NCBI GenBank assembly: GCA_001793095.1
Contig: MGHG01000009.1
Location: forward strand, 15,450-79,449
Direction of reading: 5' to 3'
Source of the DNA: Candidatus Woesebacteria bacterium RIFCSPLOWO2_01_FULL_39_23
GTDB lineage: Bacteria > Patescibacteriota > Microgenomatia > UBA8517
Length of the DNA: 64,000 nucleotides
This document shows positions 12,660 to 48,582 of the stretch, piece by piece (the stretch's first letter is position 1; the number at the start of each line of letters is the position of its first letter). The notes beneath the pieces are model-generated. The model was not told where the DNA came from and did no database searches. It saw only the letters and a list, made by a program, of their open reading frames with translations. The translations under genes were made by a program, and so were the position numbers.

Positions 12660-13610
12660 ATGACTGCCCAATCATCTTCATCTGAAATAGCTAAAAAAGT
12701 TAATGATTTTTTGGAGTACCTCGAAGTTGAGAAAGGCTCCTCTCCCCTGACTATAAGGAACTATCGCCATTATTTAGGACGCTTTATGGACTTTTTGAGT
12801 AAAGAAGGTATACGGATGAATTTGGTCGATATTAACCCGGAAATAGTTCGCCAGTTCAGGGTTTATTTATCACGACTTCCCGGTTATAAACATCAAGGGA
12901 CAATTTGCAGAAAAACTCAAGGATATCACGCGATTGCGATTCGATCATTTCTCCGTTGGTTAATCAAAAACGATTTTAAAGTGATGTCTCCGGATAAAAT
13001 TGATTTACCGAAGGTCGCCGAGCGACAAGTTAAGTTTCTATCAAGTGAGGATGTCGGACGTTTGCTTAATTCCCCGTCACTTTCGACAATAAACGGGAAA
13101 AGAGATAAGGCGATTTTAGAAGTTCTTTACTCAACCGGGTTACGTGTGTCCGAACTGGTAAGACTTAATCGCGACGAAATTGATTTAGACAGGCGGGAAT
13201 TTGGGGTTGTCGGAAAAGGCGGACGAGCGCGAGTAGTATTTTTATCGAAGCGGGCTGCTGAATGGATTGATGCATATTCAAAAGTGAGAGCTGATCACTT
13301 CAAGCCTTTATTTATACGGCATAAAGGAAAAATTGATCCGGCGGTAGCGGATGAAAAAATGCGGCTTACGTCAAGATCGATTCAGAGAATGATAAAAAAG
13401 TATGTCAGGAAAATAAAGTTGACGGTGGACGCAACACCCCATGTCTTACGACATTCTTTTGCAACTGATCTTCTTATGGCGGGAGCCGATATTCGAAGTG
13501 TGCAGGAAATGCTGGGACATAAAAATATTCAAACTACTCAAATATACACCCACGTTACCCAACGCCACCTCAGGGAAATCCACGAGACGTTTCATGGAAA
13601 AGGAAATTAG
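12660..13610 (+). CDS. Tyrosine site-specific recombinase, XerC/XerD family
   Basis: 316 aa. C-terminal HVLRHSFATDLLMAGADIRSVQEMLGHKNIQTTQIYTHV holds the R-H-R-Y catalytic signature region. N-terminal SAM-like core-binding domain. Confidence 0.85.
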   Translation: MTAQSSSSEIAKKVNDFLEYLEVEKGSSPLTIRNYRHYLGRFMDFLSKEGIRMNLVDINPEIVRQFRVYLSRLPGYKHQGTICRKTQGYHAIAIRSFLRWLIKNDFKVMSPDKIDLPKVAERQVKFLSSEDVGRLLNSPSLSTINGKRDKAILEVLYSTGLRVSELVRLNRDEIDLDRREFGVVGKGGRARVVFLSKRAAEWIDAYSKVRADHFKPLFIRHKGKIDPAVADEKMRLTSRSIQRMIKKYVRKIKLTVDATPHVLRHSFATDLLMAGADIRSVQEMLGHKNIQTTQIYTHVTQRHLREIHETFHGKGN

Positions 13611-32716: not shown

Positions 32717-33648
32717 ACTATGGACACCCTTTCTTTTTGAAGTATTAGATAAAGCTTGTAGAAGATATTTAAAATAATATTTTTAGGGAAAAAGGATTGT
32801 AAATAGAAAATATAGCTTTTAATGAATAGAGGCCGTTCTTTAATCAGTTTTAGAAAAGTCTTCCTTGAACTACTGCTATTACCTTCATAATAATTTTGTA
32901 TTGCATGGTAATAATAAGTGAGAAATTTAAAATCACATTGGAGCCTTTTTTGTATGGGTTGTGAATATGTGATCAAATGAGAGTATCGAATCCGGCTGTT
33001 GTTGTATATAACCTTATGTATGTTTTTAGTTAAGTTGGCACCATGCACGTTATAGGAATATGAGGGGTGATTTAGATAACCAAAGGGATATTTTTTTGCA
33101 AGCCTAAGCCATAATTCGAAATCTTCCACGGGTTCATATTTTTTTTGAAATAATTTAATTCCGACGAGAGCCTGTTTACGAACCATAACTGAGGGACAAA
33201 TAAGATAATTTTTTTTTAGCAATAGTGAAAGATAGGTATTTTCCGGCACATGATTAATGTATAAGAATTGTTTATTGTGTAAATAAAAATATGCATTTGT
33301 ATAACAGAACACACACCTGCTATTTAATTTTAAAAACTTAACTTGTTTATTGATTTTATCAGGTTTAATAGTATCGTCGTCGTCAAGAAAACAGATATAT
33401 TTGCCTTTAGCTTTTTTAAGGCCGTAGTTTCTGGAATCTGCAGGCCCACTGTTTTTTTTACGATAATACTTAATTCGCTTGTCGTTATCTCTTTTAACTA
33501 CTTGTTCAGTGTTGTCATTCGATCCGTCATCAACAACTATTATTTCAAGATTGGTATAGTCCTGTTTGGTTACGCTGTCCAGAGCTCTTTGTAACATTAC
33601 TACCCTATTGTAAGTAGGTATGATCACACTTACGAGACAGTCATTCAT
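32713..33648 (-). CDS. Family 2 glycosyltransferase
   Basis: VSVIIPTYNRVVMLQRALDSV...LEIIVVDDGSNDNT is a classic GT2 N-terminus. Confidence 0.75.
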   Translation of the reverse strand: MNDCLVSVIIPTYNRVVMLQRALDSVTKQDYTNLEIIVVDDGSNDNTEQVVKRDNDKRIKYYRKKNSGPADSRNYGLKKAKGKYICFLDDDDTIKPDKINKQVKFLKLNSRCVFCYTNAYFYLHNKQFLYINHVPENTYLSLLLKKNYLICPSVMVRKQALVGIKLFQKKYEPVEDFELWLRLAKKYPFGYLNHPSYSYNVHGANLTKNIHKVIYNNSRIRYSHLITYSQPIQKRLQCDFKFLTYYYHAIQNYYEGNSSSSRKTFLKLIKERPLFIKSYIFYLQSFFPKNIILNIFYKLYLILQKERVSIV

Positions 33649-34479: not shown

Positions 34480-35289
34480 TTGGTGTTAATAATCATTTTA
34501 TATTTACTGGTTTCTGTACTGGGCTTGGTAGCGGGTTCTTTTATTAGTGCTTTGTCTTATCGTCTGCCTCTTGGAATAAAAATTACTAAGGGGAGGTCGT
34601 TTTGTGATAATTGTGGGACGAAAATTGCCTGGTATGATAATATACCTGTCTTTTCTTACTTTTTATTAGATGGGAAGTGTCGATGTTGTAAAAAAGAGAT
34701 TTCACTACGCTACAGTTTAATTGAATTTTCTACACTTCTCGTCTTTTTATCCATTGCCTATTTCTATGTGAGTTGTGTTTCTACTCTTGGTAGTGCGGTT
34801 TGCCAGTGGCGAAATCTTTTGGGATCCGGAGCACTCCCCTACCTTCTAATGCTAGCGGCGGGTTTTGTAACACTTGCAGTCATTGATTTGGAACATCAGA
34901 TGATTCCGGATAAAATCACGCTATCTTTATTTGCGATAACGTCATTGATCCTTATTTTTTTAAACCCCGATTATGCTTATCAAAGTTTTCTGGCAGGATT
35001 CCTAGCAGCACTTTTTCTTCTTCTAATCCATCTTGCAACCAAAGGTAAAGGTATGGGGCTGGGAGACGTTAAACTGGCGCTATTGGGCGGTGTGATATTG
35101 GGGTGGAGATCGACAGTCCCCTGGTTAATGCTTAGTTTTATCATAGGTGCGGTAGTAGGATTAATTTTGATTTTATTTGGGAAAGCAAAGTTTGGTAAAC
35201 ACATTCCGTTCGGACCGTTTTTGGTTGTATCTTTTTTTCTGGCATTGGTATTTGGAGACAGAATGTTTAGTAGCATCCTTCGATTATGA
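34480..35289 (+). CDS. pilD: Prepilin peptidase / N-methyltransferase PilD (A24 family)
   Basis: N-terminal CxxC...CxxC zinc region (CDNCGTKI...CRCCKKEI), the two catalytic Asp segments, and polytopic topology. Confidence 0.85.
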   Translation: MVLIIILYLLVSVLGLVAGSFISALSYRLPLGIKITKGRSFCDNCGTKIAWYDNIPVFSYFLLDGKCRCCKKEISLRYSLIEFSTLLVFLSIAYFYVSCVSTLGSAVCQWRNLLGSGALPYLLMLAAGFVTLAVIDLEHQMIPDKITLSLFAITSLILIFLNPDYAYQSFLAGFLAALFLLLIHLATKGKGMGLGDVKLALLGGVILGWRSTVPWLMLSFIIGAVVGLILILFGKAKFGKHIPFGPFLVVSFFLALVFGDRMFSSILRL

Positions 35290-35885
35290 AGCCTTTTACC
35301 AAAAGTGAAATTAAAGGTGTATCGATCATCTTACTGGTTATATTCAGCGTTACTGCTATTAACCTAAAAGTGGCTCTTAGGCGTGCGCGGGATGCACAAA
35401 GGAGAGATGATGTGGGTGCGCTGGATTCGGCGTTAAATAAGTATCAGGTTGATTTTGGTTTTTTCCCCCCTTCGACAACAGATGGTAAAATTCTAGCCTG
35501 TAAAGGCCCGAATTATTCGCCCTTGCCGGAAAATATGGAAAAAGAAGAAAGGATGAAAGCCTTTTTAGCGATGCTTAAGGGTTGCGTTTGGGGTAAAGAT
35601 GCTTTTAGGGATGTAAACGACGACTCCTATCCCCCGTATATAAAAATACTGCCGGCTGATCCGAAATCAGATGAAGGTATAAGCTATTTTTATATTTCGA
35701 ACGGCAACCGTTTTCAGATATATACTTATTTGGAGGGAGGAGATGGCGAAATCGGCTTTCGACAGGGAATTGTAGACCGTCAACTCCCCTGCGGTAACCA
35801 GATTTGCAACTTTGGACGATCCTATGGCGCGACCCCACTTGAAAAATCCATCGAAGAGTACGAGAATGATATATTGGGGAAATAA
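35286..35885 (+). CDS. Atypical GspG-like pseudopilin lacking a canonical G|FTLxE cleavage motif
   Basis: Hydrophobic N-helix followed by RRARDAQRRDD (pseudopilin-like). ILPADPKSDEGISYFY resembles the GspG ADPWG region. No Glu+5. Confidence 0.45.
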   Translation: MKPFTKSEIKGVSIILLVIFSVTAINLKVALRRARDAQRRDDVGALDSALNKYQVDFGFFPPSTTDGKILACKGPNYSPLPENMEKEERMKAFLAMLKGCVWGKDAFRDVNDDSYPPYIKILPADPKSDEGISYFYISNGNRFQIYTYLEGGDGEIGFRQGIVDRQLPCGNQICNFGRSYGATPLEKSIEEYENDILGK

Positions 35886-35924
35886 GCCTTTAACTTATAA
35901 CTAACTACTTATAACTTAATAAAC

Positions 35925-36482
35925 ATGCCTACTTTTAAAAAATCTTTAGTCATCAGTCCCAAGTCGCCAGTTAATTTGGGCTTTACACTTATCGAGATGT
36001 TGATAGTCATGGCGATGATAGCTCTTTTGGCAACATTATTTATTACAGGTTTTCCGGCTTCGCAGCGCAGGGCGCGGGATGCCCAAAGACGGAGTGATCT
36101 GAATAATTACAACGCACTTTTACGCGAATATGGAAGCCGGCACGAAGGTTTATACCCGGGTGCAAACGGCAGTGGTATTGAAATGAAATGCGGCGGAATG
36201 GGGTGTATTGGACTTTATTTATGCAACCTTTTAGGTATAAGTAGCACTGCATGTCACGTTGATCGGTATGATAGGCAGACTGAGTGTTTCAATAATGAGT
36301 TGTGCATTTATTATTATCAGGGAAGTAGTTGCGACGACGGCAGTGCGTGTGCTGAAAGTTTTGTCTTAAGAGCAAGGCTTGAGAGCGAAGCGGGGTGGGT
36401 GTACTACTGCTCAAATGGCTCAAATGGAATTGCCGCAGAGGGAACAACCTGGGATACTTTAGCCGGTTACTGTCCGATATAG
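35925..36482 (+). CDS. Prepilin-type minor pilin / pseudopilin
   Basis: LG|FTLIEMLIVMAMIALLATL plus ARDAQRRSDL. Confidence 0.75.
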   Translation: MPTFKKSLVISPKSPVNLGFTLIEMLIVMAMIALLATLFITGFPASQRRARDAQRRSDLNNYNALLREYGSRHEGLYPGANGSGIEMKCGGMGCIGLYLCNLLGISSTACHVDRYDRQTECFNNELCIYYYQGSSCDDGSACAESFVLRARLESEAGWVYYCSNGSNGIAAEGTTWDTLAGYCPI

Positions 36483-36485
36483 TGT

Positions 36486-37061
36486 ATGGTAAAAGTCATG
36501 AGTCTCAAGTCTCTCCGAGCAGGAGGTCTCTCCGAGCCGGAGGCAAAAGTCAAAAGTTATTCTGGTTTTACTTTGGTCGAGATGCTGGTGGTCCTGGCAA
36601 TAATAGTTGTCATTTTATCTATGTCGGCATTTGGTATAGGGAGTTCTATGGAGTCAGCAAGAGATTCAAGAAGAAAAAACGATTTAAGGCAATATCACGA
36701 TCTATTAAAAGAATATGCCGGCAGGCATCAGGGTTTCTATCCGCAACGTACTGCAGTTGTTGCCGCATCCGATCTTAATAACGAGACAAACGACAGTTTG
36801 TGTAACGACTTGGGGTTAGATGCTGCGGATACAACAACTGATTGTCCGGGCGATCCAAGAGATGGTTCAACCAAAACGGTCGGAGCTTATACCTATACAC
36901 TTCGATATACATACATAACAACAGGAGGAACATGTACGGGCGGATCAGCCTGTGCTAGTGCTTATGTTTTGAGGGCAGTGTTAGAATCTTCGGACGTGTC
37001 GTGGAGTATAGATCAAGACGGCATTGTCCGGGAAAGCATATTGGGAATAGCAGGCGATTAA
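36486..37061 (+). CDS. Prepilin-type minor pilin whose 26-aa leader peptide is encoded by a palindromic repeat array
   Basis: SG|FTLVEMLVVLAIIVVIL. The leader MVKVMSLKSLRAGGLSEPEAKVKSY contains the CTCTCCGAGC(A/C)GGAGG x2 repeat at 36505-36545. There is no alternative downstream start. Confidence 0.7.
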   Translation: MVKVMSLKSLRAGGLSEPEAKVKSYSGFTLVEMLVVLAIIVVILSMSAFGIGSSMESARDSRRKNDLRQYHDLLKEYAGRHQGFYPQRTAVVAASDLNNETNDSLCNDLGLDAADTTTDCPGDPRDGSTKTVGAYTYTLRYTYITTGGTCTGGSACASAYVLRAVLESSDVSWSIDQDGIVRESILGIAGD

Positions 37062-37064
37062 TAT

Positions 37065-37568
37065 ATGTTGAGTAGAAATTTAGGTTTCACATTGGTCGAG
37101 ATGCTTGTCGTTTTGGCGATTATCGCAATTATCGCTGCCGTCTCGGGAATCGGTATGCGCAATTCATTCGAATCAGCACGTGATGCCCAAAGGAAGTCTG
37201 ACTTAAGACAGTACCAGACAGCGCTTGAGCGCCAGGCAAATAATAATAACGGTTTTTATGAATCGAGAACAACCGCTGTCGACGCTCCTGGCGCAGCAGG
37301 TACTTTATGTGCTGATTTAGTCCTGACTAGCTGTCCTGTTGATCCAAGAAGATGTGCTGACACCACATGTACTGCTTTGAAAGACAATACTTGGATACAA
37401 TATACATATATTAGTGACGGCACCGGTTCCGGGAATCCGACCGGCAGGAATTATGTATTGTGGGCAAGACTTGAGAATGTTACAACGACTACCTATTGGG
37501 AAATATGCTCTAATGGAAAATCGGGTACGGTAACTACGGCTCCCACTAATTCAACCTGCGACCTTTAA
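37065..37568 (+). CDS. Prepilin-type minor pilin / pseudopilin
   Basis: LG|FTLVEMLVVLAIIAIIAAV plus ARDAQRKSDL. Confidence 0.75.
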   Translation: MLSRNLGFTLVEMLVVLAIIAIIAAVSGIGMRNSFESARDAQRKSDLRQYQTALERQANNNNGFYESRTTAVDAPGAAGTLCADLVLTSCPVDPRRCADTTCTALKDNTWIQYTYISDGTGSGNPTGRNYVLWARLENVTTTTYWEICSNGKSGTVTTAPTNSTCDL

Positions 37569-37570
37569 AT

Positions 37571-38194
37571 ATGATTAATAAACAACTCATGCCTAAGAGG
37601 CATAAGTTTTCTCGCCAAAGCTCGAAGAGTTTGTTCACTGCTTCGCTTCAGCACAGGGCTAAAAGCCCTGAGTTTTCGCGAAGTATGAATAAATTGCACC
37701 ATGCCTTTACTCTTGTTGAACTTCTTGTAGTAATAGCAATAATTGTGATGCTTTTGGCCGCTTCCCTGATTGGTATACAGGGGTCAAAAGAAACAACAAG
37801 AGATGTGAGAAGGAAGGCTGATTTGGAAGCAATAAGAGAAGCGCTTGAGCTGTATAAAGCAGATAATAACGTTTATCCTTATTCTAATCCTGAAAACGCG
37901 TGTGATTCAAGCGAGGGATCATGCGGCACTGCTTGTACATCCGGAACAAATTCCTGCGGAGGCGTTGCCTGGGCAGCACCGATGACTAACCTTCAACCCA
38001 ATTTTATTGCTGATCTACCGGAAGACTCGATTAATGATGACACACATTTTTACTACTACGAACCCGTTTGTAATCAAACTTCGACTGTATGTGGCGTTTC
38101 GAAGACTTGTACGGGAATTAATAATTGCTGTGCGTACGAGCTGGGGACGCAGCTCGAAGCCGATTCGACATGGTATCGGGTCTGCAGTCCTTAG
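37571..38194 (+). CDS. Prepilin-type minor pilin (probable start at Met 37685, MNKLHHA|FTLVELL)
   Basis: FTLVELLVVIAIIVML with Glu+5. Ala at position -1 instead of Gly. Confidence 0.7.
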   Translation: MINKQLMPKRHKFSRQSSKSLFTASLQHRAKSPEFSRSMNKLHHAFTLVELLVVIAIIVMLLAASLIGIQGSKETTRDVRRKADLEAIREALELYKADNNVYPYSNPENACDSSEGSCGTACTSGTNSCGGVAWAAPMTNLQPNFIADLPEDSINDDTHFYYYEPVCNQTSTVCGVSKTCTGINNCCAYELGTQLEADSTWYRVCSP

Positions 38195-38203
38195 TCCACA
38201 AAA

Positions 38204-38740
38204 ATGATACATTTTCTTCGCAAGGGTTATTCACTAGTCGAACTTTTGGTCGTTATTTCGATAATTATGGTCGTTTTTACGATCGTTAATGCCAATTATC
38301 GTGCTTATACACGAAAAAGGGCACTTGACGGTGTAGCTGAAGGCATAAAAGCCGATATAAGACTTGCCCAAGAATATGCTATTTCCGGCAAGAAACCTGC
38401 TGGTTCGTGCGATGCCTTGCAGGGAATTTATTTTAGAAGAATGGCAGGTTCGTATTATAGAATAGAAGCATATTGTAAAGTGGGTGGTGTAAATAGAACT
38501 TGTACTACCTCCCCCGGATATCCGGATTTATGTTATAAAGATGCAGTATATTTACCTTCTGGCTATACTATGGGAAATATCGTACCAGTCACACCTCTGA
38601 ATAATATTATATATTTCAAACTTGGCGGGAGGGGAAATTATTTAGACCCAGCAAGTTCGCCTTACTCCATTACTATTACGCAACCTTATACTTCGGCGAC
38701 CAAGGCAATCTATTTTACGGCGGGAGGAGAAGTATATTGA
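38204..38740 (+). CDS. Prepilin-type minor pilin
   Basis: KG|YSLVELLVVISIIMVVF. Confidence 0.7.
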   Translation: MIHFLRKGYSLVELLVVISIIMVVFTIVNANYRAYTRKRALDGVAEGIKADIRLAQEYAISGKKPAGSCDALQGIYFRRMAGSYYRIEAYCKVGGVNRTCTTSPGYPDLCYKDAVYLPSGYTMGNIVPVTPLNNIIYFKLGGRGNYLDPASSPYSITITQPYTSATKAIYFTAGGEVY

Positions 38741-39279
38741 TGAAAACTAATAACTTAAAACTTATAACTAATAACTTTAATTTGGGTTTACCCCGTACAA
38801 ACGCTCCCCGATACCCGATCGGGGTAAGTTCTGTGCGGGGACAGTCGATGGTTGAAGTTGTGTTTGCCATCGGAATAGCAGCCATTATATTGACTACTGT
38901 TGTTTCCGTTTCAGTATCTTCAGTTCGAAATTCGACTTTTTCAAAATTAAACTCTCAGGCCAATAGATATGCTCAGGATCTGAGCGAATGGTTACGCCGC
39001 CAAAGAGATCTTGATTGGGCGACGTTTAAAGCTAAAGCGAATACAACGGGCATTACCTACTGTTTTAAAACACCAAACCCGACTGCCTGGCCGGCTTCGG
39101 GAGTTTGCGGTAGTTCAGATTTTATGACAGGGACGAAGTTTATAAGACAAGCAAAGTTAAGTCTACCAAGCACAGATCCGTTGGTATTATCCGAAGTAAC
39201 TGTATCCTGGACTGACAGTCAAGGAACACATTCCGTAGTTTCAATAACGAAATTGGTGGACTGGAGGGCGCAACCGTGA
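38737..39279 (+). CDS. Prepilin-type minor pilin with a long leader (PilV/PilW-like)
   Basis: RG|QSMVEVVFAIGIAAIILTT with Glu+5. 35-aa leader. Confidence 0.55.
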   Translation: MMKTNNLKLITNNFNLGLPRTNAPRYPIGVSSVRGQSMVEVVFAIGIAAIILTTVVSVSVSSVRNSTFSKLNSQANRYAQDLSEWLRRQRDLDWATFKAKANTTGITYCFKTPNPTAWPASGVCGSSDFMTGTKFIRQAKLSLPSTDPLVLSEVTVSWTDSQGTHSVVSITKLVDWRAQP

Positions 39280-39797
39280 GGCAGAAGGCATATTCGTTAG
39301 TTGAAATATTAATTGTGATAGCAGTTTTTGCGGTTTTATCTATCGTAAGTACAATGGTCATTCAAACTGTATTGAAAAATGCAAACAAAACTCAATCTCA
39401 AATTAATGTTCGGGAAAACCTTGGCTATGTCATGTCTGTAATTGAACGGCAATTACAGTTATCCAAAGGTATAACGGTATGCCCAATTATCGACCCTTAT
39501 AAAGTAGATTTTACTTCAGAAACGGGAGTTGCAGCTTCATTTGTTTGTGAAAATATAGGGCTAACCGATCCGCAGGTTGCATCATATTCGGGTGTAACTA
39601 CCCCCGCTACTAAATATCGACTTACATCCAGTAGCGTGATTATTGATTACTGTAATTTTAGCTGCACTCACACGTTAGGGCAAAGAGATCTTGTTAAATT
39701 TTCAATTTCCGGCCACCAATTAAATAATTTTGAAGCTGAAGGTGCAACAGTTGTCATGCAAACCGAAATTCTTCTCCGCAACTATTCGAAGTATTAA
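39276..39797 (+). CDS. Prepilin-type minor pilin
   Basis: KA|YSLVEILIVIAVFAVLSIV. Confidence 0.65.
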   Translation: MRQKAYSLVEILIVIAVFAVLSIVSTMVIQTVLKNANKTQSQINVRENLGYVMSVIERQLQLSKGITVCPIIDPYKVDFTSETGVAASFVCENIGLTDPQVASYSGVTTPATKYRLTSSSVIIDYCNFSCTHTLGQRDLVKFSISGHQLNNFEAEGATVVMQTEILLRNYSKY

Positions 39798-39936
39798 TGT
39801 AATCTTTTTACCGACCTCATAATTATTTTTTGATTTTATACGGTTTGATATGGTATAATATGCACACAAATGTATATTAATTGTTTTAGAATTTTGTTAT
39901 TTGATTTATTCGAGTTTAACTCGAGGTGATTTATAA

Positions 39937-39960
39937 CCCTCCTTAAAGGAGGGTTTTTTA
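39937..39960 (+). terminator. Rho-independent terminator after the minor-pilin operon
   Basis: CCCTCC-ttaaa-GGAGGG followed by TTTTTT. Confidence 0.7.
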
Positions 39961-39970
39961 AAGGTAAAGT

Positions 39971-41128
39971 ATGTCGACACGCGAGCATAATTTGGGAAAG
40001 TTAAAAGAACCCATTAAGCGACCAATGACAAGAAGAGAATTTATTCGTGCAGCGTTTGGAGTAGCAGGTGGATTGGTGGCCGCAAAGACAGGTGCAGATC
40101 TATTGATTAATTATGTTGTAAAAAAGGATGAAGTCGTAGCAACCGGTGAAGGACAAAATAGTGATGTATCAGGAGGAGAAAACATGCCTTCTTCAACCGA
40201 TGTTTTACAAGGTAATCCGGCGAATACTCCGATCGGTCCTTCGGATAAGTTACCTTTAGGTACGCAAGTAGTAACCGATGTACCACCATCACTTACTCCG
40301 ACAACGCAGCCCTCACCTGCTCAAACTGAAGCCCCCGTTCCGACTGATTATTCACCCATACCGGAGGTTCTTAATGATAAAGTACAAGATAAAGTTATTG
40401 AGTTAAAGAAAAAGGGTGTAGATATCCACATTAAGGTGGATGACGTAGGAGATGCTCATATGTCGATAAATATGGGTAAAAATAATAGGTTAGAATGGGG
40501 TTTGATTAAAGTAGATACTACACCTGAGAAAGAAAACAATGTATTTATAACAACTGCGAAGAATGAACCTGTCTCATTCAATTTTGAAAGTTTCGGTGTA
40601 GATAATGGTGATCTAGTTATTAAGGATAAAGAGGGTTTATATGGAGCGAAGGGGAAAGTACTGTTAAAGTTTCATGAAGGAAATTGGGTTGCTGATAGAC
40701 TACTATTCTTGGCTGCCGGCCCAAAGCCGAGAATTTGTGATAATGGTTTACCAACCGGCGGAGCCGATAATCTGTTAACGGGTGTATTGATTTCCTCAAC
40801 AGCGGTAGGTTTTTATGATAAGGGCGGATATCTACACAATGTTAATCATTTGGGAATTGAGGATAAATTTGGAGTTGTCGGTCTATGTAAGAAAGAAGCA
40901 TCTGGTGGCGGAAAATGTAGAATTGTAAAACCAGAAGTAGCTCAAGCAGCATTGGTTGAATGGGATCGTAATAAGATTGGTCGACAAATAGGTCTGGATG
41001 TCTTTGTTAATAGAAATGAAGAAACAAAAGAGCTAGCGGATGCTATTAAAAGCGGTGAAAACTTTCCGGAGTTAAGTCCTGACTACTCCCTACCGATAAA
41101 CACATTATACGAATGGAGTCCACAATAA
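39971..41128 (+). CDS. Hypothetical secreted protein with Tat-like signal (TRREFIRAAFGVAGGLVA)
   Basis: 385 aa. An S/T-R-R-x-F-I/L motif followed by a hydrophobic stretch. Pro/Thr-rich linker, then a globular domain with conserved Cys and His. Confidence 0.4.
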   Translation: MSTREHNLGKLKEPIKRPMTRREFIRAAFGVAGGLVAAKTGADLLINYVVKKDEVVATGEGQNSDVSGGENMPSSTDVLQGNPANTPIGPSDKLPLGTQVVTDVPPSLTPTTQPSPAQTEAPVPTDYSPIPEVLNDKVQDKVIELKKKGVDIHIKVDDVGDAHMSINMGKNNRLEWGLIKVDTTPEKENNVFITTAKNEPVSFNFESFGVDNGDLVIKDKEGLYGAKGKVLLKFHEGNWVADRLLFLAAGPKPRICDNGLPTGGADNLLTGVLISSTAVGFYDKGGYLHNVNHLGIEDKFGVVGLCKKEASGGGKCRIVKPEVAQAALVEWDRNKIGRQIGLDVFVNRNEETKELADAIKSGENFPELSPDYSLPINTLYEWSPQ

Positions 41129-41140
41129 TAGTGCAATTAA

Positions 41141-42112
41141 ATGTCAACCGATAGATTACGTACTTCAGGACTTTCTACTAGAGATTTTCTTAAGATCTCG
41201 GCAGCTGCTTCATTAGCTGCAACGGGTTTATATTTATCTAATGAAAATAATAAAATAGGCTTTAATAAAATATTTGATTTTATTGTTAAACTAAGCCACG
41301 ATAGCAATGCGATTGAATTACAAAGATCAGACTATCTTAAAATTTATTATCCGCTATCGCGTGAACTTCCAATTAAACAGGATGGCGTTATCGACTCGGG
41401 TATATCGGATACAGATTGGTTTAACTATACAAATTTAAGGATTAATTCCGTAAGTTTTCAAAAGTTAATACAATTTTATGAAAAATTAGCCGTTGATGGT
41501 AAGCAATACGAATACAACTTTAATAATGGCGCGGTTGATTTAAGTCATAAATTTCGAATAGGCTTAAAAAGCGAGCGTAAACACACATGCGTTATTACCT
41601 CAGATATTAATCCTACGCCCGATTGGACAATGGGTTTGAAAACAGCAACTGTAAATATGCTACTTAAAAGTAAGGAGAATGAAGATATTATTCCTGGAAG
41701 AACTATGACGATAGTTAGCGTTCCTTCCAACATTGAAAATTATCCCAAAGTTGAAGTGAATAAAAACCTTAAATCAATAGTGAGTACGTCAATGGCGACC
41801 GAGGCATTTAATATGACCTCGTACGTTAACTCGGATTTACAAGAAAATTACACCGGAAAGACCGAAGCTGGATATCAAGGTGATTTTGCAGGAGAAATTA
41901 CAGCTAACTCTATTGGTTTAATGTTTGTTGCGAAACAATTAGGTTTAAATTATAAACAATTTGAGGATAGTATAATTGAAAAGGATGGAAATATTAGGTA
42001 TATCAAATTGGGATTTAGTTATATCATAAACGGTAAGAGAATACTGGCAACACCTTTTATGGATAAAGATATGTACAACAAAATTCCTAATATTGGCTTA
42101 CCCATATCATAG
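41141..42112 (+). CDS. Hypothetical secreted protein (signal STRDFLKISAAASLAATG, Tat-like but R-D rather than R-R)
   Basis: 323 aa, no family recognised. Confidence 0.35.
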   Translation: MSTDRLRTSGLSTRDFLKISAAASLAATGLYLSNENNKIGFNKIFDFIVKLSHDSNAIELQRSDYLKIYYPLSRELPIKQDGVIDSGISDTDWFNYTNLRINSVSFQKLIQFYEKLAVDGKQYEYNFNNGAVDLSHKFRIGLKSERKHTCVITSDINPTPDWTMGLKTATVNMLLKSKENEDIIPGRTMTIVSVPSNIENYPKVEVNKNLKSIVSTSMATEAFNMTSYVNSDLQENYTGKTEAGYQGDFAGEITANSIGLMFVAKQLGLNYKQFEDSIIEKDGNIRYIKLGFSYIINGKRILATPFMDKDMYNKIPNIGLPIS

Positions 42113-42183
42113 TTCTTCCCTACTTTAGTTGTGTTATTGAATAAATGGTGGTAAATCTGCTAAATTGGTATGAGATTCATTAA

Positions 42184-42783
42184 ATGGAAGAAGCGGCTAA
42201 TTTAATAAACACTCAAAGAAAGAATAAATTTCCGATATTTATTTATCTGATATTTTTGATATTATTTATAGCTGTAGTTGTATTAGCTTCTGTTTTGATA
42301 ATTTCCAAGCTTCCGTGTAGAGGCTACCTTGGAAAACCACAGTTTACGGGAGTAGTAGACCAAGAAAAAAACCTAGTCAGGGGTGATGATAATTTTTCAT
42401 CTATTAAGGTTAAGTCGTGCATTTTATCGCTGCAAAAAACAGATGAAAATGAGGTTGTATATAAGGTTGGTATATTTCGTGATTATTTTAGAATGGAAAA
42501 GTTCGATATTAGAATTGGAGGAAAATATCCCAAGGTTGCTGTATGTAATATTGATAAAGATGGTAAGTGCAAAGTTATAAACGCTCAAGATATAACACTA
42601 AACCTAAAACTGAAAAATATTTATAGTTTTTATTTTGTAGTTGTAGACAAAAAGTCGCAGTTAATTGAAACAAACTCTGAATATGAGAAATTTATGGATA
42701 GCTTAACAAAATTCTTGATAAACGAGTCTACTTATCAATCTAGCGGTGAAGTTGTTCAAATATCGCAAATAGATTTTGATTAA
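42184..42783 (+). CDS. Hypothetical N-terminally membrane-anchored protein
   Basis: 199 aa with a single TM helix near the N-terminus. Confidence 0.35.
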   Translation: MEEAANLINTQRKNKFPIFIYLIFLILFIAVVVLASVLIISKLPCRGYLGKPQFTGVVDQEKNLVRGDDNFSSIKVKSCILSLQKTDENEVVYKVGIFRDYFRMEKFDIRIGGKYPKVAVCNIDKDGKCKVINAQDITLNLKLKNIYSFYFVVVDKKSQLIETNSEYEKFMDSLTKFLINESTYQSSGEVVQISQIDFD

Positions 42784-45323
42784 TGATTATGAAAAGAATA
42801 TTATTTATTTTGTTTGGATTTACATCATTTATAATATTTTTTGGAGTTAGTAGAAGTATTGTAAATGCACAATGCGGGGACGGTCAATTTTGCGGTCTTG
42901 ACCAGGGTTACGATGCTACAGTAAGCCAAAATGTCAAGTATTGTTTTAGGAATGGTACAACATGGGAGTGTTCAAATACCCCGGCAAATGACTTCTGGTT
43001 ATGCGATGGTAGCTTTCCCTGCAGTGTTGCGGGAGGTGGCGGCGGTCCGGGGGGAAATTGTTCATACGTTGGTGATGTCCCATCTTGTTCACTTAATGTG
43101 ACTGCGGGTGGTTGCCCTGCTGATCCTACCGCGTGTAATGGTTGTGACATTGATCTGGTTGCTGATTCCTGCGACCCCATAAGTGTTCCAGTTTATACAG
43201 GTTGCTGTGTGGGTGCAGGGGGAGAATGTTCTTCCGAGTCTGAAGCGGGTTGTAATAGCGGTCAAAATGTGGGAGATTCGTGTGGCGGTGGTAGCATATG
43301 TATTGACTCGGGTAGCGAGGGAGGGGATGGTAAACCGATTTGTAATTGTGGTGGCGGAGGGAATGAAATTAATTGGTTACGGGCGAGAATAATGCTCGAT
43401 GCTAATGAAAATAATTTATTTGACGAGGGTGATGAATATTATGTCCAGGACAATAATATATTGAGCTGTTCGAATCTAGCGAATAATTATGTTACATTTA
43501 CAAACCTTTCTCCCTTAAAAATTTCCCCGGTTGGTTTTACTACGATAGACGTTCCAACAATTTGCCATTTAAGTGGTGAAAACGACAACAATCACCCCAA
43601 ATTTCCTTGGGCTATTGAACAACTTAATACAGATACGAGCTTTACTTTCAATTTTACCCTCCCCGCTAGTTACGAATTAGTTAATGTCGACAGGGGGAGT
43701 TGCAGTGTTTCGTCCCCTACGCAAGTAACATGTTCCGGTTGGGGCGGTGGTATTCAGGAAGTAACATTTTTAATCAGGTATAAAAGGAATACCTGTACGG
43801 TATCGGTCAGTCCTGCAACCGATAACAGTGTTCCCGGAAGTACGACAGTCACTTTAAGTGGAACGAATTATGACACTAATCCCGCTGACACCGTAAACCT
43901 AAATGTAATACGAAACGATTTTAAACAAGTTCCGAATTGGCAGACATCAATTACTCCCAACTCCCCTGCCGTTACAGAGACATTATCTAACGGTGTATAT
44001 TATTATAAAATTCCGGCTGCGGGATGTACGTCGTCTAATGGAACAGCATGCAGCAAAACAACTACCGTTAATCTTCCGGCGGCTGATTATACTTTTTTCT
44101 GTGATGTCCCCTACGCTCCATTTCAATGTTCTGGAAATCCCAATTGTACATATGAAGGAGGTACAATGGACTGCTCTGGTGGTGGTTGGGTTTCCTGTTC
44201 AGAGAGCGATCACACGCCATTTAGTGTCTATTTACAATGTCCATCCAATAGAACCAGTGTCTGTGACGGTACAGGAACTTCAGTTACTACGAGTTGGACC
44301 AATTTTTCGACGAATGATGCTGACAGCTATTACCATGAATTGGACGATAATCCAAATTCTTCACCGTATGTCGTAACAAATTCCGCGACGTCACCTTTAA
44401 CTCAATCTGTGATTGCCGGTACGCCATACAGATGGGAAATTCGAGGAAATCGGACTAATGACGATACTGAACCTCTTCCTGTCGGACCAACGGGCGGATG
44501 TTGGATCAGCTTTACGTGTAATCCGCCAGCCGCTCTTCCCTGGTGGCGGGTAACGGGATCAGGTATAACTGCTAACGGATTTATTCAATCAACCATACCT
44601 GCTGCCGGAATGTATTTAATTAACGATCCACCCGGTGTATTACAATACAATAATGACAATCCGCCAAGTCTGGGTTTGGGAAGTATTTCGAGTACGGGTT
44701 GGAACGTGAATTTAGCATCAGCCCATACCTATACGTATGATTTCTTCAGAAATAAGCTTCCCTCTTCAGTTACACCCACTCAACTAACAAACTGCACAAT
44801 CGCAGCAGCTAACCTAACTATCGGTGGTATGGAGTGGCCTGCCGGTTCAAACTACTTTTGGTATGAAACAACCTGTGCCAATAGTAGTATAACCATAGGG
44901 AGCTTAACCGATATCTCGATTAATTTGTTAGATAGAAAAGTAATATTATTTGCAAAGGACAAAGTGGTCAATATCACTAAACCAATCTTCTTAAATAATG
45001 GCAAAGGGTTTTTCGGCCTGTTTACAAGCAACGATATCTCCGTCGCTTCCTCAGTCGGCGGCTTAGCTGATACGTCACCGGATCTTGAGGGCATATTTTT
45101 TACTGAGGGTGATTTCAAATCGGGGGTTGGCAACTATGGCGAGGAACAGCTGCATGTGCGAGGCTCAGTTGCCGCAAATACTTTTACACTGGCGGGTCAG
45201 AGGAATTTACCTGATGATTCGGCAGATCCGGCTGAGCACTTTGAATTTGCACCCGATCTCATCTTTAATTTTCCTAAAGTACTCTCTCCAAGACTGATTA
45301 ACTGGAAAGAAGTTGCTCCCTAG
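42783..45323 (+). CDS. Large secreted Cys/Gly-rich protein (candidate pilus-associated adhesin, PilY1-position analog)
   Basis: 846 aa. Signal peptide. The N-terminal 200 residues contain more than 30 Cys, with G-runs. The C-terminal domains are Thr/Ser/Asn-rich. Sits between the minor pilins and pilX. Confidence 0.45.
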   Translation: MIMKRILFILFGFTSFIIFFGVSRSIVNAQCGDGQFCGLDQGYDATVSQNVKYCFRNGTTWECSNTPANDFWLCDGSFPCSVAGGGGGPGGNCSYVGDVPSCSLNVTAGGCPADPTACNGCDIDLVADSCDPISVPVYTGCCVGAGGECSSESEAGCNSGQNVGDSCGGGSICIDSGSEGGDGKPICNCGGGGNEINWLRARIMLDANENNLFDEGDEYYVQDNNILSCSNLANNYVTFTNLSPLKISPVGFTTIDVPTICHLSGENDNNHPKFPWAIEQLNTDTSFTFNFTLPASYELVNVDRGSCSVSSPTQVTCSGWGGGIQEVTFLIRYKRNTCTVSVSPATDNSVPGSTTVTLSGTNYDTNPADTVNLNVIRNDFKQVPNWQTSITPNSPAVTETLSNGVYYYKIPAAGCTSSNGTACSKTTTVNLPAADYTFFCDVPYAPFQCSGNPNCTYEGGTMDCSGGGWVSCSESDHTPFSVYLQCPSNRTSVCDGTGTSVTTSWTNFSTNDADSYYHELDDNPNSSPYVVTNSATSPLTQSVIAGTPYRWEIRGNRTNDDTEPLPVGPTGGCWISFTCNPPAALPWWRVTGSGITANGFIQSTIPAAGMYLINDPPGVLQYNNDNPPSLGLGSISSTGWNVNLASAHTYTYDFFRNKLPSSVTPTQLTNCTIAAANLTIGGMEWPAGSNYFWYETTCANSSITIGSLTDISINLLDRKVILFAKDKVVNITKPIFLNNGKGFFGLFTSNDISVASSVGGLADTSPDLEGIFFTEGDFKSGVGNYGEEQLHVRGSVAANTFTLAGQRNLPDDSADPAEHFEFAPDLIFNFPKVLSPRLINWKEVAP

Positions 45324-45380: not shown

Positions 45381-46331
45381 ATGGTTAATCTGCCTGGTGA
45401 GAGGTATCGGGAGAAAGGTCAAGCACTTCTTATCGTCTTACTTGTTATGAGCGTTGCTATTACTATTGTCCTTTCCGTTGTGGCACGCTCAATCAGCGAC
45501 GTTTCGGTTACGACGCACGAAGAAGAATCTGTACGCGCATTCAGCGCCGCTGAAGCCGGAATTGAAGAGGCTCTATTATCCGGGTTATCTGTCGGTCAAA
45601 CTACGCTTTCTAATAACGCAAGTTATGAGGCTAATGTATTTGAAACAAGTCCATCGGGAAGGTTTTTTATATATCCCGGCACATTATTAACGGGTGATTC
45701 GGCGACGGTTTGGTTTGTTTCCCATGACTCGGATGGGAATTTATCCTGTTCTCCCTACTGTACGGCTCCGACAAGAATTGATGTTTGTTGGGGGAAAAAG
45801 GGTACTCTCGATAATGATCCTGAAACTCCTGCTATAGAGGTGACAATTGTTTATGATTATGATCCTATCACTTCTACCACGGGTTACGCAACCGGAGTAA
45901 ATCACAATTACCAATATTTGAGAGTCGTAAGAGCTACTTTTGACCCAAATGTTAGTCGTTCAGCGGATAATAAATTTAACTCGACAAATTTGGGTACCGA
46001 TTGTACGGGTCTTGATCAGGTCTATGAATTTCAAAAAGCTAATTTATTATTGAACAATGCCGCAGAAAGATTGTACCTTGACTGCTGGATTACTCCCGGG
46101 TGCGCAATTGCTATGAAAATAAGATTCTTTTATAACACAACTACCGCTCAACCCCTTGCAATAAACGATCTTTTGCCTGTTAGTACTAATTTTCCCCCAC
46201 AAGGCAAACTTATAGAGTCGGTAGGGACTTCCACGGATATATCGAGAAAAATAAGCGTGTTCCAAGGTTATCCCGAAGTTCCGGTTATTTTTGAGACTGC
46301 TGTTACCAGTAGTTCGGATATTCAGAAATAG
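45381..46331 (+). CDS. PilX-N-domain-like minor pilus assembly protein
   Basis: EKGQALLIVLLVMSVAITIVLSVVARS resembles the PilX_N consensus (QRGAALIVVLLLL...). Confidence 0.5.
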   Translation: MVNLPGERYREKGQALLIVLLVMSVAITIVLSVVARSISDVSVTTHEEESVRAFSAAEAGIEEALLSGLSVGQTTLSNNASYEANVFETSPSGRFFIYPGTLLTGDSATVWFVSHDSDGNLSCSPYCTAPTRIDVCWGKKGTLDNDPETPAIEVTIVYDYDPITSTTGYATGVNHNYQYLRVVRATFDPNVSRSADNKFNSTNLGTDCTGLDQVYEFQKANLLLNNAAERLYLDCWITPGCAIAMKIRFFYNTTTAQPLAINDLLPVSTNFPPQGKLIESVGTSTDISRKISVFQGYPEVPVIFETAVTSSSDIQK

Positions 46332-46335
46332 TTGT

Positions 46336-47343
46336 ATGATTGGGCTAGATATCGGGTCAAAAACAATAAAAATTGCTGAGCTTGAACGCTCCGGTCAGAC
46401 TTTTCGGCTTCGCGCCTCGGGCGTCGTTGGTTATAAAAGTACAAGCCCCGAGAAAATGAATGATGACAAAGAGCTTGTTATCATGAGCGATGTTATAAGA
46501 AAATTATGTAAAGAAGCGAGAATCGGAACTAAAGAGGTTGTAGTATCTCTTCCCGAAACTCAGGTTTTCACTCGGTTGGTCAAGTTCCCGCTATTAACTG
46601 ATTCGGAAATAGCATCGGCCGTTAAGTGGGAAGCCGAACAATATATTCCCTTTCCGGTTGATGAAGCGGTAATTGAACATCAAATTTTGGACCGTAAACC
46701 CAACTCCACTCCCCCGCAGGTTTTTGTCCTATTAATTGCAGCACCGAAATTATTGGTTGAAAAATACATTAGGCTTGCTGAAATGGCTAAGTTGGAGACG
46801 GTGGCTGTTGAAACTGAGCTTATTGCACTTGCCCGGTCAATTTGTCCCCCGGATCAAACGGTTATGGTAGCCGATTTTGGCGCACGAGCCACAAATATTG
46901 CAATTGTCCGGAATGGGAATCTTATGATGGCACGATCAATTCCTACCGCCGGGGATGCGCTGACGCGGGCTGTGTCCCAGGGCCTTGGAGTAGAAACATT
47001 TCAGGCAGAGGAATATAAAAAAGTCTATGGCTTATCTTCGAGTCAGCTTGAAGGAAAAATAAAGGGAGTTTTAAACCCGGTGCTCGCCATGGTAACGGAT
47101 GAAATGAAAAAGGCAATTCATTATTATAGTGCTGAAGGAGAAGGCGATCCTCCAAGAACTTTAGTACTTTCAGGTGGGACGTCGAGTATGCCTAATGTTA
47201 TTGCGGTGATGACTGAGCTGACGGGCATGGAGGTGGTTATCGGTAATCCTTTCGCTCGTATTCAGGTTGATCCTGAAGCAGCAAAAACACTTATGAGCTA
47301 TGCGCCGGTTTATTCGATAGCGGTAGGACTTGCTATGCGTTAA
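46336..47343 (+). CDS. pilM: Type IV pilus assembly protein PilM (actin-like ATPase fold)
   Basis: MIGLDIGSKTIKIAEL start and FtsA/PilM-like fold motifs. The ORF-track start at 46291 overlaps the previous gene; the ATG at 46336 is preferred. Confidence 0.85.
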   Translation: MIGLDIGSKTIKIAELERSGQTFRLRASGVVGYKSTSPEKMNDDKELVIMSDVIRKLCKEARIGTKEVVVSLPETQVFTRLVKFPLLTDSEIASAVKWEAEQYIPFPVDEAVIEHQILDRKPNSTPPQVFVLLIAAPKLLVEKYIRLAEMAKLETVAVETELIALARSICPPDQTVMVADFGARATNIAIVRNGNLMMARSIPTAGDALTRAVSQGLGVETFQAEEYKKVYGLSSSQLEGKIKGVLNPVLAMVTDEMKKAIHYYSAEGEGDPPRTLVLSGGTSSMPNVIAVMTELTGMEVVIGNPFARIQVDPEAAKTLMSYAPVYSIAVGLAMR

Positions 47344-47344
47344 T

Positions 47345-47875
47345 ATGGCCAGAAATATAAATTTATTACCTCTTGAGTTTGTACCGAATAAAAAACTGGT
47401 TCGTATGGGGGCTGCGCTAAAAAAGTTAGCGATAATAAGTTATATTTTCTTTTTCTTGGCTGCAGGATCAATTGCTTATGCTCTTTATCGCTACGACAAG
47501 CACATAAAAGAGTTACGCAATAATAGAAATACATTAGAAGCTGAACTTGATAACCTAAAAAAAACCGAGACTAAAATTGTTTATTTAAAAGATAGGGCGG
47601 ACAAAGCTCAAAAGGTAATTGATGCAAATACCACGCGAAGTTCTATTGTCACGTTTTCTGAATTTGATAACCACATACCGCCTGGCATATTAATATCAGA
47701 TATGGCATTTAGAGGAAGTAGGGCTACTTTTAAGGTAGCGGCAGAGAATTCTGGCAGTTTGAGCCAGATGGTGCAATACGTTATTGGTACGACCGTTTTT
47801 AAAGCAATAATATTAGGCGATATAAAATTAGGGGAAAACGGTAAGTATACGACTACTATTACGGTTGAAATTTAA
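47345..47875 (+). CDS. pilN: PilN-like pilus assembly protein
   Basis: MARNINLLPLEF (the INLLP motif), a single TM helix and a coiled coil. Confidence 0.6.
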   Translation: MARNINLLPLEFVPNKKLVRMGAALKKLAIISYIFFFLAAGSIAYALYRYDKHIKELRNNRNTLEAELDNLKKTETKIVYLKDRADKAQKVIDANTTRSSIVTFSEFDNHIPPGILISDMAFRGSRATFKVAAENSGSLSQMVQYVIGTTVFKAIILGDIKLGENGKYTTTITVEI

Positions 47876-47877
47876 AT

Positions 47878-48582
47878 ATGGTTAATTTAGGGTTTGGTGA
47901 AAACGTAAAACTTAGAAGCTATAAAATAGTTTTAATTCCATTTTTTGCTTTAATTGTATTAATAATATTATTTATTTATGCCGCTACAACTGGTTATGGA
48001 AAGTTGAGAAGTCAAAAACAGATTATTGATGAATTGGAAAGAGATGACACAACGTTGGAAGCAAAAATAAATAATCTCAAAAACCTAGAAGCTCAAACTT
48101 ATCCTGACTCCACTGAGATGTTAATACGGTTTCCGAACGACAACCCCTCACTTTGGATGTTGGGACAGCTCATAAGAAAAGGTGAAGAAAGTGCCGTTAC
48201 ATTATTTGAACAAACTTTACTTTTCGATGAGGCCAGTCTGGAAAATATTACCGTTTCAACTATCAATTTCCAGGTTACCGGAAATAAAGAGAAAATTTTT
48301 GATTATTTGTTAAGTATCGACAACATATCCCCTATTTCGACTTTTGATTCTGTTGATTTCTCTGAAAGTGAGACTGCCCAGCAGGGTGCTCTTGTTAGTT
48401 TAAAGGTTTATTTTTCTCCTCTTCCAGAGGTACTTACTAATTTAAACGAAGTCGTTAATGAATTGACGCCTCTCGAGGTAACTACGCTAAATAAGCTTTC
48501 TGAGATGGAATTACCGGAATTTTCGACTCTCATGCCGAGCGCTAATTATGAACTGAAGGACCCCTTTAACTCTTTTCAGTAA
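47878..48582 (+). CDS. PilO-like pilus assembly protein
   Basis: Single TM helix, then a coiled-coil (LEAKINNLKNLEAQ) and a periplasmic-type domain. Follows pilMN. Confidence 0.4.
   Translation: MVNLGFGENVKLRSYKIVLIPFFALIVLIILFIYAATTGYGKLRSQKQIIDELERDDTTLEAKINNLKNLEAQTYPDSTEMLIRFPNDNPSLWMLGQLIRKGEESAVTLFEQTLLFDEASLENITVSTINFQVTGNKEKIFDYLLSIDNISPISTFDSVDFSESETAQQGALVSLKVYFSPLPEVLTNLNEVVNELTPLEVTTLNKLSEMELPEFSTLMPSANYELKDPFNSFQ

Follow-up and report, generated by a model that had tools for sequence, protein, structure and literature searches.

A four-gene block in a Woesebacteria type IV pilus locus encodes a candidate surface adhesin with a family-defining C-terminal domain

The 846-aa protein and its family

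The 64,000-nt stretch of DNA analyzed here (the window) comes from Candidatus Woesebacteria bacterium RIFCSPLOWO2_01_FULL_39_23 (assembly GCA_001793095.1, contig MGHG01000009.1, positions 15,450 to 79,449 of the forward strand), a member of the Candidate Phyla Radiation (CPR), and holds at 39971-45323 a block of four open reading frames (ORFs), all on the + strand, for proteins of 385, 323, 199 and 846 aa. The block lies between a GspJ-like and a GspK/PilX-like minor-pilin gene, within a complete type IV pilus (T4P) locus. An initial annotation had described four secreted or membrane proteins of no assigned function there, and all four ORFs were confirmed: ORFs of such length at ~38% GC are not chance, and the same four genes are called on 18 public metagenome contigs from the same organism. 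The intergenic gaps measure 12 nt between the 385- and 323-aa genes and 71 nt between the 323- and 199-aa genes, while the stop codon of the 199-aa gene and the start codon of the 846-aa gene overlap by one base (TAATG). This last gene, the largest of the block, encodes a protein with a C-terminal domain that defines a large and previously undescribed family, and it is the center of the argument that follows.

The 846-aa protein (42783..45323, + strand) begins with a Sec-type signal peptide (residues 1-30, 42783..42872; MIMKRILFILFGFTSFIIFFGVSRSIVNA, with Q the next residue, as read from the translation), continues with a Cys/Gly-rich region (residues 31-190, 42873..43352; 20 Cys, 18.5% Gly) and a variable Thr/Ser/Asn-rich middle (residues 191-579, 43353..44519; 16 further Cys), and ends in the conserved domain (residues ~580-846, about 265 aa, 44520..45320). 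The initial annotation had placed more than 30 cysteines in an N-terminal region: the protein has 38, of which 34 lie in the first 500 residues and only 20 in residues 31-189, so that the figure holds if the N-terminal 60% of the protein is counted. The glycine runs and the Thr/Ser/Asn-rich remainder that it described are borne out by composition (12.9% Thr, 10.8% Ser and 10% Asn over residues 200-580). The middle part can be aligned only partly to the relatives P0002-P0005. Pfam gave no PilY1/PilC match at E<=1, and neither Pfam nor NCBIfam detected a wall-binding or anchoring domain (SLH, LysM, LPXTG and the like).

AlphaFold, run on residues 560-846 with an input alignment of 15 sequences (a word-index profile search gave 13 members), modelled a confident core at residues ~649-804 (44727-45194, + strand; pLDDT 85-96) made of many short stacked beta-strands. 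Judged from the strand pattern rather than from coordinates, this core looks like a beta-solenoid; in the model it is not a PilY1 beta-propeller. Foldseek searches against the PDB and BFVD (viral models) returned nothing significant, the top matches being beta-helical ice-binding proteins and ComZ at chance level. A profile of the C-terminal domain found no match in the PDB, and the C-terminal domains of 33 family members found none in NCBIfam. Two other identities were considered for the protein and rejected: a degenerate pilin, since hhalign comparisons of the C-terminal domain with the K, I and J minor-pilin families were negative, and a polymorphic toxin, since the variable end is N-terminal and neither a toxin domain nor a downstream immunity-like gene accompanies it.

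An exhaustive HMMER search retrieved 798 representative clusters at E<=1e-3 (604 at E<=1e-10), almost all from Woesebacteria or other Microgenomates, and nearly every match spans query residues ~580-846 and reaches the last residue of the relative. A word-indexed homology search with the full 846 aa returned the protein itself and one distant relative, probably because it was swamped by N-terminal low-complexity words. Upstream of the domain the relatives are varied in sequence, and their total length runs from about 300 to 1300 aa; most have a signal peptide with a Cys-rich stretch directly after it, and certain relatives bear TSP1 (TSP_1) or Ig-like (Big_2) domains, adhesion-type modules that count in favor of an adhesin. 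The domain itself carries near-invariant motifs (PWWQ, RKVILFV, QLHxRGS, PAExFEFAPD and a C-terminal WxEVxP).

The genomic context of the family was read from 49 loci (L-numbers), almost all from Candidatus Woesebacteria, Microgenomates or unclassified Patescibacteria, which were gathered by a pattern scan from eight closer sequences with one genome per species, a sample biased toward members with PWWQV and FEYAPDQ motifs. Closely related pairs within this set are far more alike at the C-terminal end than elsewhere: identity is 93.5% in the domain versus 43.5% in the rest for L016/L019 (243 gapped columns), 75% versus 38% for L017/L020, and 58% versus 22% for L014/L015. A constant end joined to an end that changes fast or is exchanged is the look of receptor-binding proteins. 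Two family genes, in tandem or a few kb apart, occur in L055 (2-4216) and L011 (10001-11437 and 19396-20994), a pattern that would fit frequent duplication of the cassette. The family domain also occurs at three loci (L028, L051 and L057) whose records are labelled Chloroflexi, Chloroflexia or Pelolinea; these could be mis-binned CPR contigs or a real transfer beyond Patescibacteria.

DUF7305 (PF23981), whose function is not known, gave weak matches over the beta-strand core of 12 of the 33 family C-terminal domains (best E 2.5e-4), all of them below its gathering score (27 bits) and none to the window protein. A literature search on DUF7305 returned no paper, and one on Woesebacteria, pili and cysteine-rich proteins returned nothing relevant. 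A non-pilin pilus-associated adhesin is a known idea; as far as these searches show, neither the family nor its C-terminal domain nor the cassette has been described in Pfam, NCBIfam, the PDB or the searchable literature.

The pilus locus and the position of the family gene

The pilus genes of the window begin with PilB (23674), PilT (25497), PilC (26589) and a pilin (27970), after which an island of glycosyltransferase genes on the opposite strand (28816-33648) splits the locus between this pilin gene and the next (33844). The prepilin peptidase PilD (34480) and five pilin-like genes (35286-38194) follow, and then three minor pilins on the + strand: GspH/FimU-like (38204..38740; N_methyl 6.7e-6, TIGR01708 gspH 8.1e-6), PilV/GspI-like (38737..39279; TIGR02523 PilV 3.3e-6) and GspJ/PilW-like (39276..39797; TIGR01711 gspJ 3.8e-6, N_methyl 1.1e-5), the last gene 5' of the block. 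The block thus comes after an eighth minor pilin, as had been counted, when the count starts from PilD. On its other side lies the GspK/PilX-like gene (45381..46331, + strand; PilX_N E 0.008, NF037980 GspK 1.5e-4), whose product has a GQAL N-terminus without Glu5, and then the PilM, PilN-like and PilO-like assembly genes (46291..48582, + strand), PilM with a PilM_2 match at 3.1e-50 and the other two identified by where they lie, how large they are and how well they are conserved across loci. From the block through K to PilMNO all genes run in one direction, with short gaps and one overlapping gene pair, which speaks for co-expression in the window.

The labels H, I, J and K were assigned from HMM scores that all fall under the curated cut-offs and are mutually consistent, together with gene order and conservation in relatives. 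GspH-like homologues adjoin I and J in 24 relatives' loci; the PilV/GspI-like gene (cluster 2) is present in 24 loci with J invariably its neighbor; and the GspK/PilX-like gene (cluster 4) occurs in 18 loci, invariably preceding PilM, with a PilX_N match in 5 of 10 members. None of the four block proteins, the 846-aa protein included, matches N_methyl or TIGR02532, whereas the flanking pilins do, and the class III pilin signal (G|F-x-x-x-E, with an N-terminal hydrophobic helix) is absent from all four by HMM and by reading of their N-termini.

The minor pilins score best against the pseudopilin models of type II secretion systems (T2SS; GspH/I/J/K), the 846-aa gene is located between J and K, and T2SS-like gene sets have been noted in CPR (PMC9166423), all of which would suit an 846-aa protein that is the cargo of a type II-like secretion piston, released rather than borne on a tip. 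We consider this very improbable. No secretin was seen and CPR are thought to be without an outer membrane (PMC9166423), so the piston would have nothing to cross; PilT, PilM, PilN, PilO and many pilins are typical of a true pilus; and a strictly C-terminal domain with an invariant end motif would, in our view, fit docking better than it fits a secretion signal.

The placement of the family gene recurs. In the relatives' loci, where genes were called as simple longest ORFs and labelled by the window's own pilus proteins, 34 family genes have at least 5 kb of sequence on both sides: a J- or K-like gene lies within 10 kb in 17, and 12 sit exactly between J and K, the slot that the gene occupies in the window. 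By our estimate the pilus locus is only a few percent of a genome of ~1 Mb. J and K are usually 3-10 kb apart in Woesebacteria. On a rough neighbor-joining tree without support values, most pilus-locus copies cluster with one another, as expected of orthologues.

Several other features of the window deserve mention. The glycosylation genes of the opposite-strand island encode a TMEM260/PMT-like protein O-mannosyltransferase (625 aa), a GT2+GT1 fusion (678 aa) and a GT2 (311 aa), and could act on pilins or on the Thr/Ser-rich adhesin; their GC of 32-33%, against 40-45% around them, suggests that they were acquired. The first gene after PilD (35286-35885, 199 aa) has a faint T2SSG match and no N_methyl match, and its product has the N-terminus KGVSIILLVIF; because the usual G-F-T-L-I-E motif is missing, it may be an atypical pilin-like protein or a non-pilin. 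A tyrosine recombinase gene (Phage_integrase plus a SAM-like N-terminal domain; 12660-13610), probably of XerC/D type, stands beside gyrA and distant from the block, and a membrane H+-translocating pyrophosphatase (H_PPase, E 2e-253) is encoded on the - strand at 18519-20528, between gyrB and a methyltransferase gene.

Accessory genes and the upstream spacer

The three smaller proteins of the block are accessory to the 846-aa protein in position. The 385-aa protein (39971..41128, + strand) has the n-region TRREFIR, of the type found in signals for twin-arginine translocation (Tat), followed by a hydrophobic segment, a Pro/Thr/Ser linker and an extracytoplasmic domain of ~250 aa. The 323-aa protein (41141..42112, + strand), an orphan, has the Tat-like N-terminus STRDFLK. 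The 199-aa protein (42184..42783, + strand) is membrane-anchored, as had been proposed, by a single N-terminal hydrophobic helix (residues ~16-40, transmembrane); its AlphaFold model, of low confidence (mean pLDDT 60.7), has this helix at 16-40 and then a beta-rich domain, with no fold match beyond noise.

The two Tat-like signals pointed out initially both score below the HMM cut-offs: TRREFIR is consistent with S/T-R-R-x-F-L-K (Tat-signal HMM E 0.17, below the curated cut-off), and STRDFLK, with the single Arg already remarked on, falls outside the Tat motif (Pfam TAT_signal E 0.02, below cut-off). At the equivalent position, however, the upstream proteins of L017, L047 and L059 carry T/SRRDFLK, that of L047 passing the Pfam Tat-signal threshold, and because of these canonical motifs Tat-like signals emerge as a recurrent trait of the gene position. 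Such signals were thought surprising for CPR; they are less so given that Tat components (TatA/TatC) are reported in Microgenomatia (PMC9166423). Among the ~55 ORFs scanned, all from the 64-kb window, there is no TatC.

Homologues of the accessory proteins are few. The 385-aa protein has a single one, in L038 (28% identity over 315 aa, E 4e-20), which likewise lies 5' of a 199-like gene and a family gene, and whose C-terminal part matches L038's own 199-type protein (E 2e-6). The 199-aa protein has homologues at the same position in L033 and L038 (28-30% identity). The 323-aa protein has none among 56 related loci, and BLAST comparison of the window's accessory proteins with those of the P0002 locus was negative. 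What recurs is the layout: in most relatives' loci a membrane-tethered protein of ~400-700 aa, with a lipobox or a Tat-type signal and then a Pro/Thr linker, is encoded 5' of the family gene, and in about two-thirds of loci, pilus-associated and non-pilus alike, the family gene is abutted or overlapped by a gene for a 170-235-aa protein that has a membrane helix at its N-terminus. Sequence comparison sorts the 26 small upstream proteins into 17 unrelated groups, and the two largest of these showed no relation in a profile-profile comparison. A single conserved partner family was rejected, because an hhalign comparison between the 199-aa family and the most common family of small partners was negative. 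The accessory proteins have thus kept their position with sequences that are extremely divergent. At the P0002 locus (L005, 6529-9309), adjacent lipoproteins of 536 and 324 aa, encoded 5' of the 1308-aa relative, are nearly identical over their C-terminal ~230 residues, and because of this near-identity we take the accessory gene there to have undergone a recent tandem duplication; another contig of the same organism (L004) is without the 324-aa copy.

The spacer between J and the block (39798-39970) contains a promoter-like site upstream and two hairpins downstream. The site, TTGATT-18-TATAAT with TG (39830..39859, + strand), was found by a consensus scan with 10/12 matches, in a region where the count of promoter-like sites is not above shuffle expectation. 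Of the hairpins (39909..39960, + strand), the scan listed the first only; the second (39936-39960) is terminator-like, with an 8-bp stem and a T-run (AACCCTCC-ttaaa-GGAGGGTT plus TTTT), and ends 10 nt 5' of the block's first ATG, so that the terminator announced ahead of the block was indeed found. Its 3' arm, GGAGGG, resembles a sequestered ribosome-binding site. The predicted fold of 39798-39975 has -37.5 kcal/mol and is more stable than shuffled sequence (z = -2.8), and the spacer matches no Rfam family. The hairpins could form a leader or attenuator that holds expression of the block low.

The separation of the block from the pilin genes by a promoter-like site and a terminator-like hairpin would also suit four genes that are unrelated cargo with no common function, be they enzymes or a mobile insertion in a permissive gap. 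The 323-aa protein, without a homologue outside its own species, points the same way, and so does the J-K gap of relatives, which also holds a RelA/SpoT-like HD-domain gene (613-620 aa, cluster 26) and pairs that we read from their sequences as AbiE-like toxin-antitoxin genes (clusters 19 and 27); the gap behaves like an insertion hotspot. We nevertheless regard a chance assortment of genes as very unlikely. L038 has the same order of 385-like, 199-like and family genes, and most loci show a large tethered protein and then a small anchored one ahead of a family gene. None of the four proteins has a match at meaningful score in Pfam or NCBIfam, and a PDB sequence search found no relative of the 385-, 323- and 846-aa proteins; no enzyme family was thus found for any of them. 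The GC of the block (37-44%) is like that of its surroundings, and no integrase or repeat borders it. A mobile element was rejected on the same features, there being no integrase, flanking repeat or GC shift at the block.

A candidate docking adhesin

With a confidence that stays a little short of even, we favor the reading that the block is a modular surface adhesin cassette, PilY1-like in layout and unrelated to PilY1, whose dock is the pilus tip; the gene order, the family with its architecture, the unequal conservation of its two ends and the recurrent J/K neighborhood are observed, and the tip docking, the adhesion and the roles of the accessory proteins are all things that we infer. The architecture itself, in which a hypervariable N-terminal part follows a Sec signal and a conserved domain closes the protein, is the layout expected of a tip adhesin. 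The 846-aa protein would be exported by Sec; its hypervariable N-terminal two-thirds, first Cys-rich and then Thr/Ser/Asn-rich, would be the binding end, and the ~265-residue beta-strand-rich C-terminal domain would serve as the docking module, which is most simply how a conserved and a variable part divide the work. The likeliest docking site would be the GspH/I/J/K-like tip complex, so that the protein could be carried out on the pilus tip in a PilY1-like role. The 385-, 323- and 199-aa proteins, predicted to be membrane-tethered and extracytoplasmic, would vary with the cassette, and such upstream proteins probably have the task of folding, holding or passing on the variable part, as phage tail-fibre assembly proteins do. 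Because the accessory proteins change with the cassette and the dock does not, the target of the dock is probably something conserved; and because the dock gene is strongly enriched beside J and K, the pilus-tip complex is the best candidate for it. Minor pilins would be a conserved target of this kind: the K cluster has a mean column identity of 54%.

This arrangement has precedents. PilY1 is made with a type I signal, varies at its N-terminus and binds minor pilins through a conserved C-terminal domain; it is encoded with the core minor pilins, and a genome may hold several paralogues (PMC7541494). The 846-aa family resembles PilY1/PilC (PF05567) in its Sec signal, variable N-terminal part and conserved C-terminal part, and in that several paralogues may share a genome. 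A place among core minor-pilin genes is seen in the window and in 17 of 34 relatives, against 24 of 27 adjacent copies that are antisense and half of the family that is elsewhere. It differs in that its domain is of ~265 aa and made of stacked short strands, while that of PilY1 is a modified beta-propeller of ~500 aa; there is no sequence match, no PilY1 structure is found among the Foldseek PDB matches, and no calcium-binding or vWA features were seen in the 846-aa protein. The slot is also not quite the same. The initial annotation had put the block at the PilY1 position of the Pseudomonas operon: it does lie among core minor-pilin genes, recurrently so in relatives, but between the GspJ- and GspK-like genes, not after PilX, and usually antisense in the relatives. 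The same annotation had called the 846-aa protein a strong candidate for the pilus-tip adhesin, and the layout, the J/K placement and the relatives with TSP1 or Ig-like domains speak for a candidate of this kind, with the qualification that it has no homology to PilY1.

A second precedent comes from Saccharibacteria: in Nanosynbacter lyticus TM7x, large proteins of the T4P locus without a PilD-type signal have been proposed as tip adhesins, and PilX2 is needed for efficient host binding (PMC11623550). The 846-aa protein is likewise a large CPR protein of a T4P locus without a PilD-type signal; its conserved domain differs from the beta-jelly-roll or seven-bladed beta-propeller of PilX1/PilX2, a comparison made by description. 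A further pilus protein, ComZ of Thermus thermophilus (PDB 6qvi), is among the top fold matches at chance level (E 1.7-3.0, TM-score 0.18-0.19). ComZ is pilus-tip-associated and carries a beta-solenoid; it is a true pilin with an N-terminal helix, whereas the 846-aa protein starts with a Sec signal and lacks the N-terminus of a pilin. Phage receptor-binding fibres offer a functional analogy only, in that they too combine a conserved dock with a hypervariable end and adjoin small co-varying accessory genes; in the 846-aa protein the conserved end is C-terminal, no fold or sequence likeness to viral proteins was found, and no phage genes lie nearby.

A number of observations weigh against docking on the pilus tip, and several of them would suit a pilus-independent surface adhesin or surface-layer component whose C-terminal domain fixes it to the envelope, by way of a wall polymer or a membrane-tethered protein. 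Roughly one family member in two lacks a pilus gene within 10 kb: the 1308-aa relative P0002 is encoded between dnaK and dnaJ, several non-pilus loci have a common mreB-like/WecG/MerR-type neighborhood, and L011 is also away from pilus genes. No pilus genes were seen on the L033 and L038 contigs, the sole sources of homologues of the 385- and 199-aa proteins, and on the neighbor-joining tree the window copy groups with non-pilus copies. It had been anticipated that occurrence of the block away from pilus genes would undermine the pilus connection; this is partly the case (half of the relatives; P0002; L033 and L038), and since paralogues are common, such copies weaken the pilus claim and do not kill it. 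Even next to pilus genes, 24 of 27 copies lie on the opposite strand, often tail to tail with J with the stop codons touching, and such antisense copies are not co-transcribed with the pilus genes. The co-directional layout of the window is common only to L045 and L048, and the insertion of the block in the minor-pilin operon, as first described, is therefore no general trait. Since the J-K gap also holds unrelated cargo, it may be no more than a permissive site for insertions that has been passed on vertically. The relatives all belong to one clade; their loci therefore do not count as independent observations, and their shared gene order may be inherited rather than selected. On the side of the protein itself, the model gives no confidence to the first ~90 residues of the conserved domain, and the negative hhalign comparisons with the K, I and J families give the domain no kinship with the pilins that it would bind at the tip.

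The remoteness of half of the family, the antisense orientation, the unrelated cargo in the gap and the one-clade origin of the loci all speak for such a pilus-independent adhesin, as does the anchored protein of ~170-235 aa encoded directly 5' of the family gene in about two-thirds of loci, pilus or not. On this reading the gene would owe its position in pilus loci to history or to shared regulation and not to physical attachment. We judge it the main rival, less probable than the cassette docked at the tip, if one that must be reckoned with. Three points count against it: the small upstream proteins, with their 17 groups, are too divergent to be the common ligand of a conserved domain; the J/K enrichment is far beyond random placement; and no SLH, LysM or LPXTG-type anchor is detected by Pfam or NCBIfam.

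Returning to the cassette docked at the tip, its broader form is that the C-terminal domain is a previously unrecognized tip-docking module and that its ~800 clusters make up a Microgenomates counterpart of PilY1 with swappable host-recognition heads, cassette-specific tethered helpers, some of them exported by Tat, and a constant dock for the GspH/I/J/K-like tip, which is possible and, to us, more doubtful than the cassette itself.

Woesebacteria, like other Microgenomates, are abundant bacteria that have not been cultivated; their presumed way of life is attachment to other cells, and we know of no described means by which they attach. It is reasonable, if unproven, to see in the 846-aa protein a candidate molecule for host gripping: its fast-evolving head, constant tail and J/K slot make it the most concrete candidate for host recognition found here. 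If the tail docks on the pilus tip, the family would be a second, independent solution to the problem that PilY1 solves in Proteobacteria, its variable heads could be used to predict or fish for hosts, and it would open a direct molecular route to the way in which uncultivated CPR bacteria select and hold on to a host. If it does not dock there, the family would still be a major unannotated class of CPR surface proteins, with a C-terminal domain that merits a Pfam entry.

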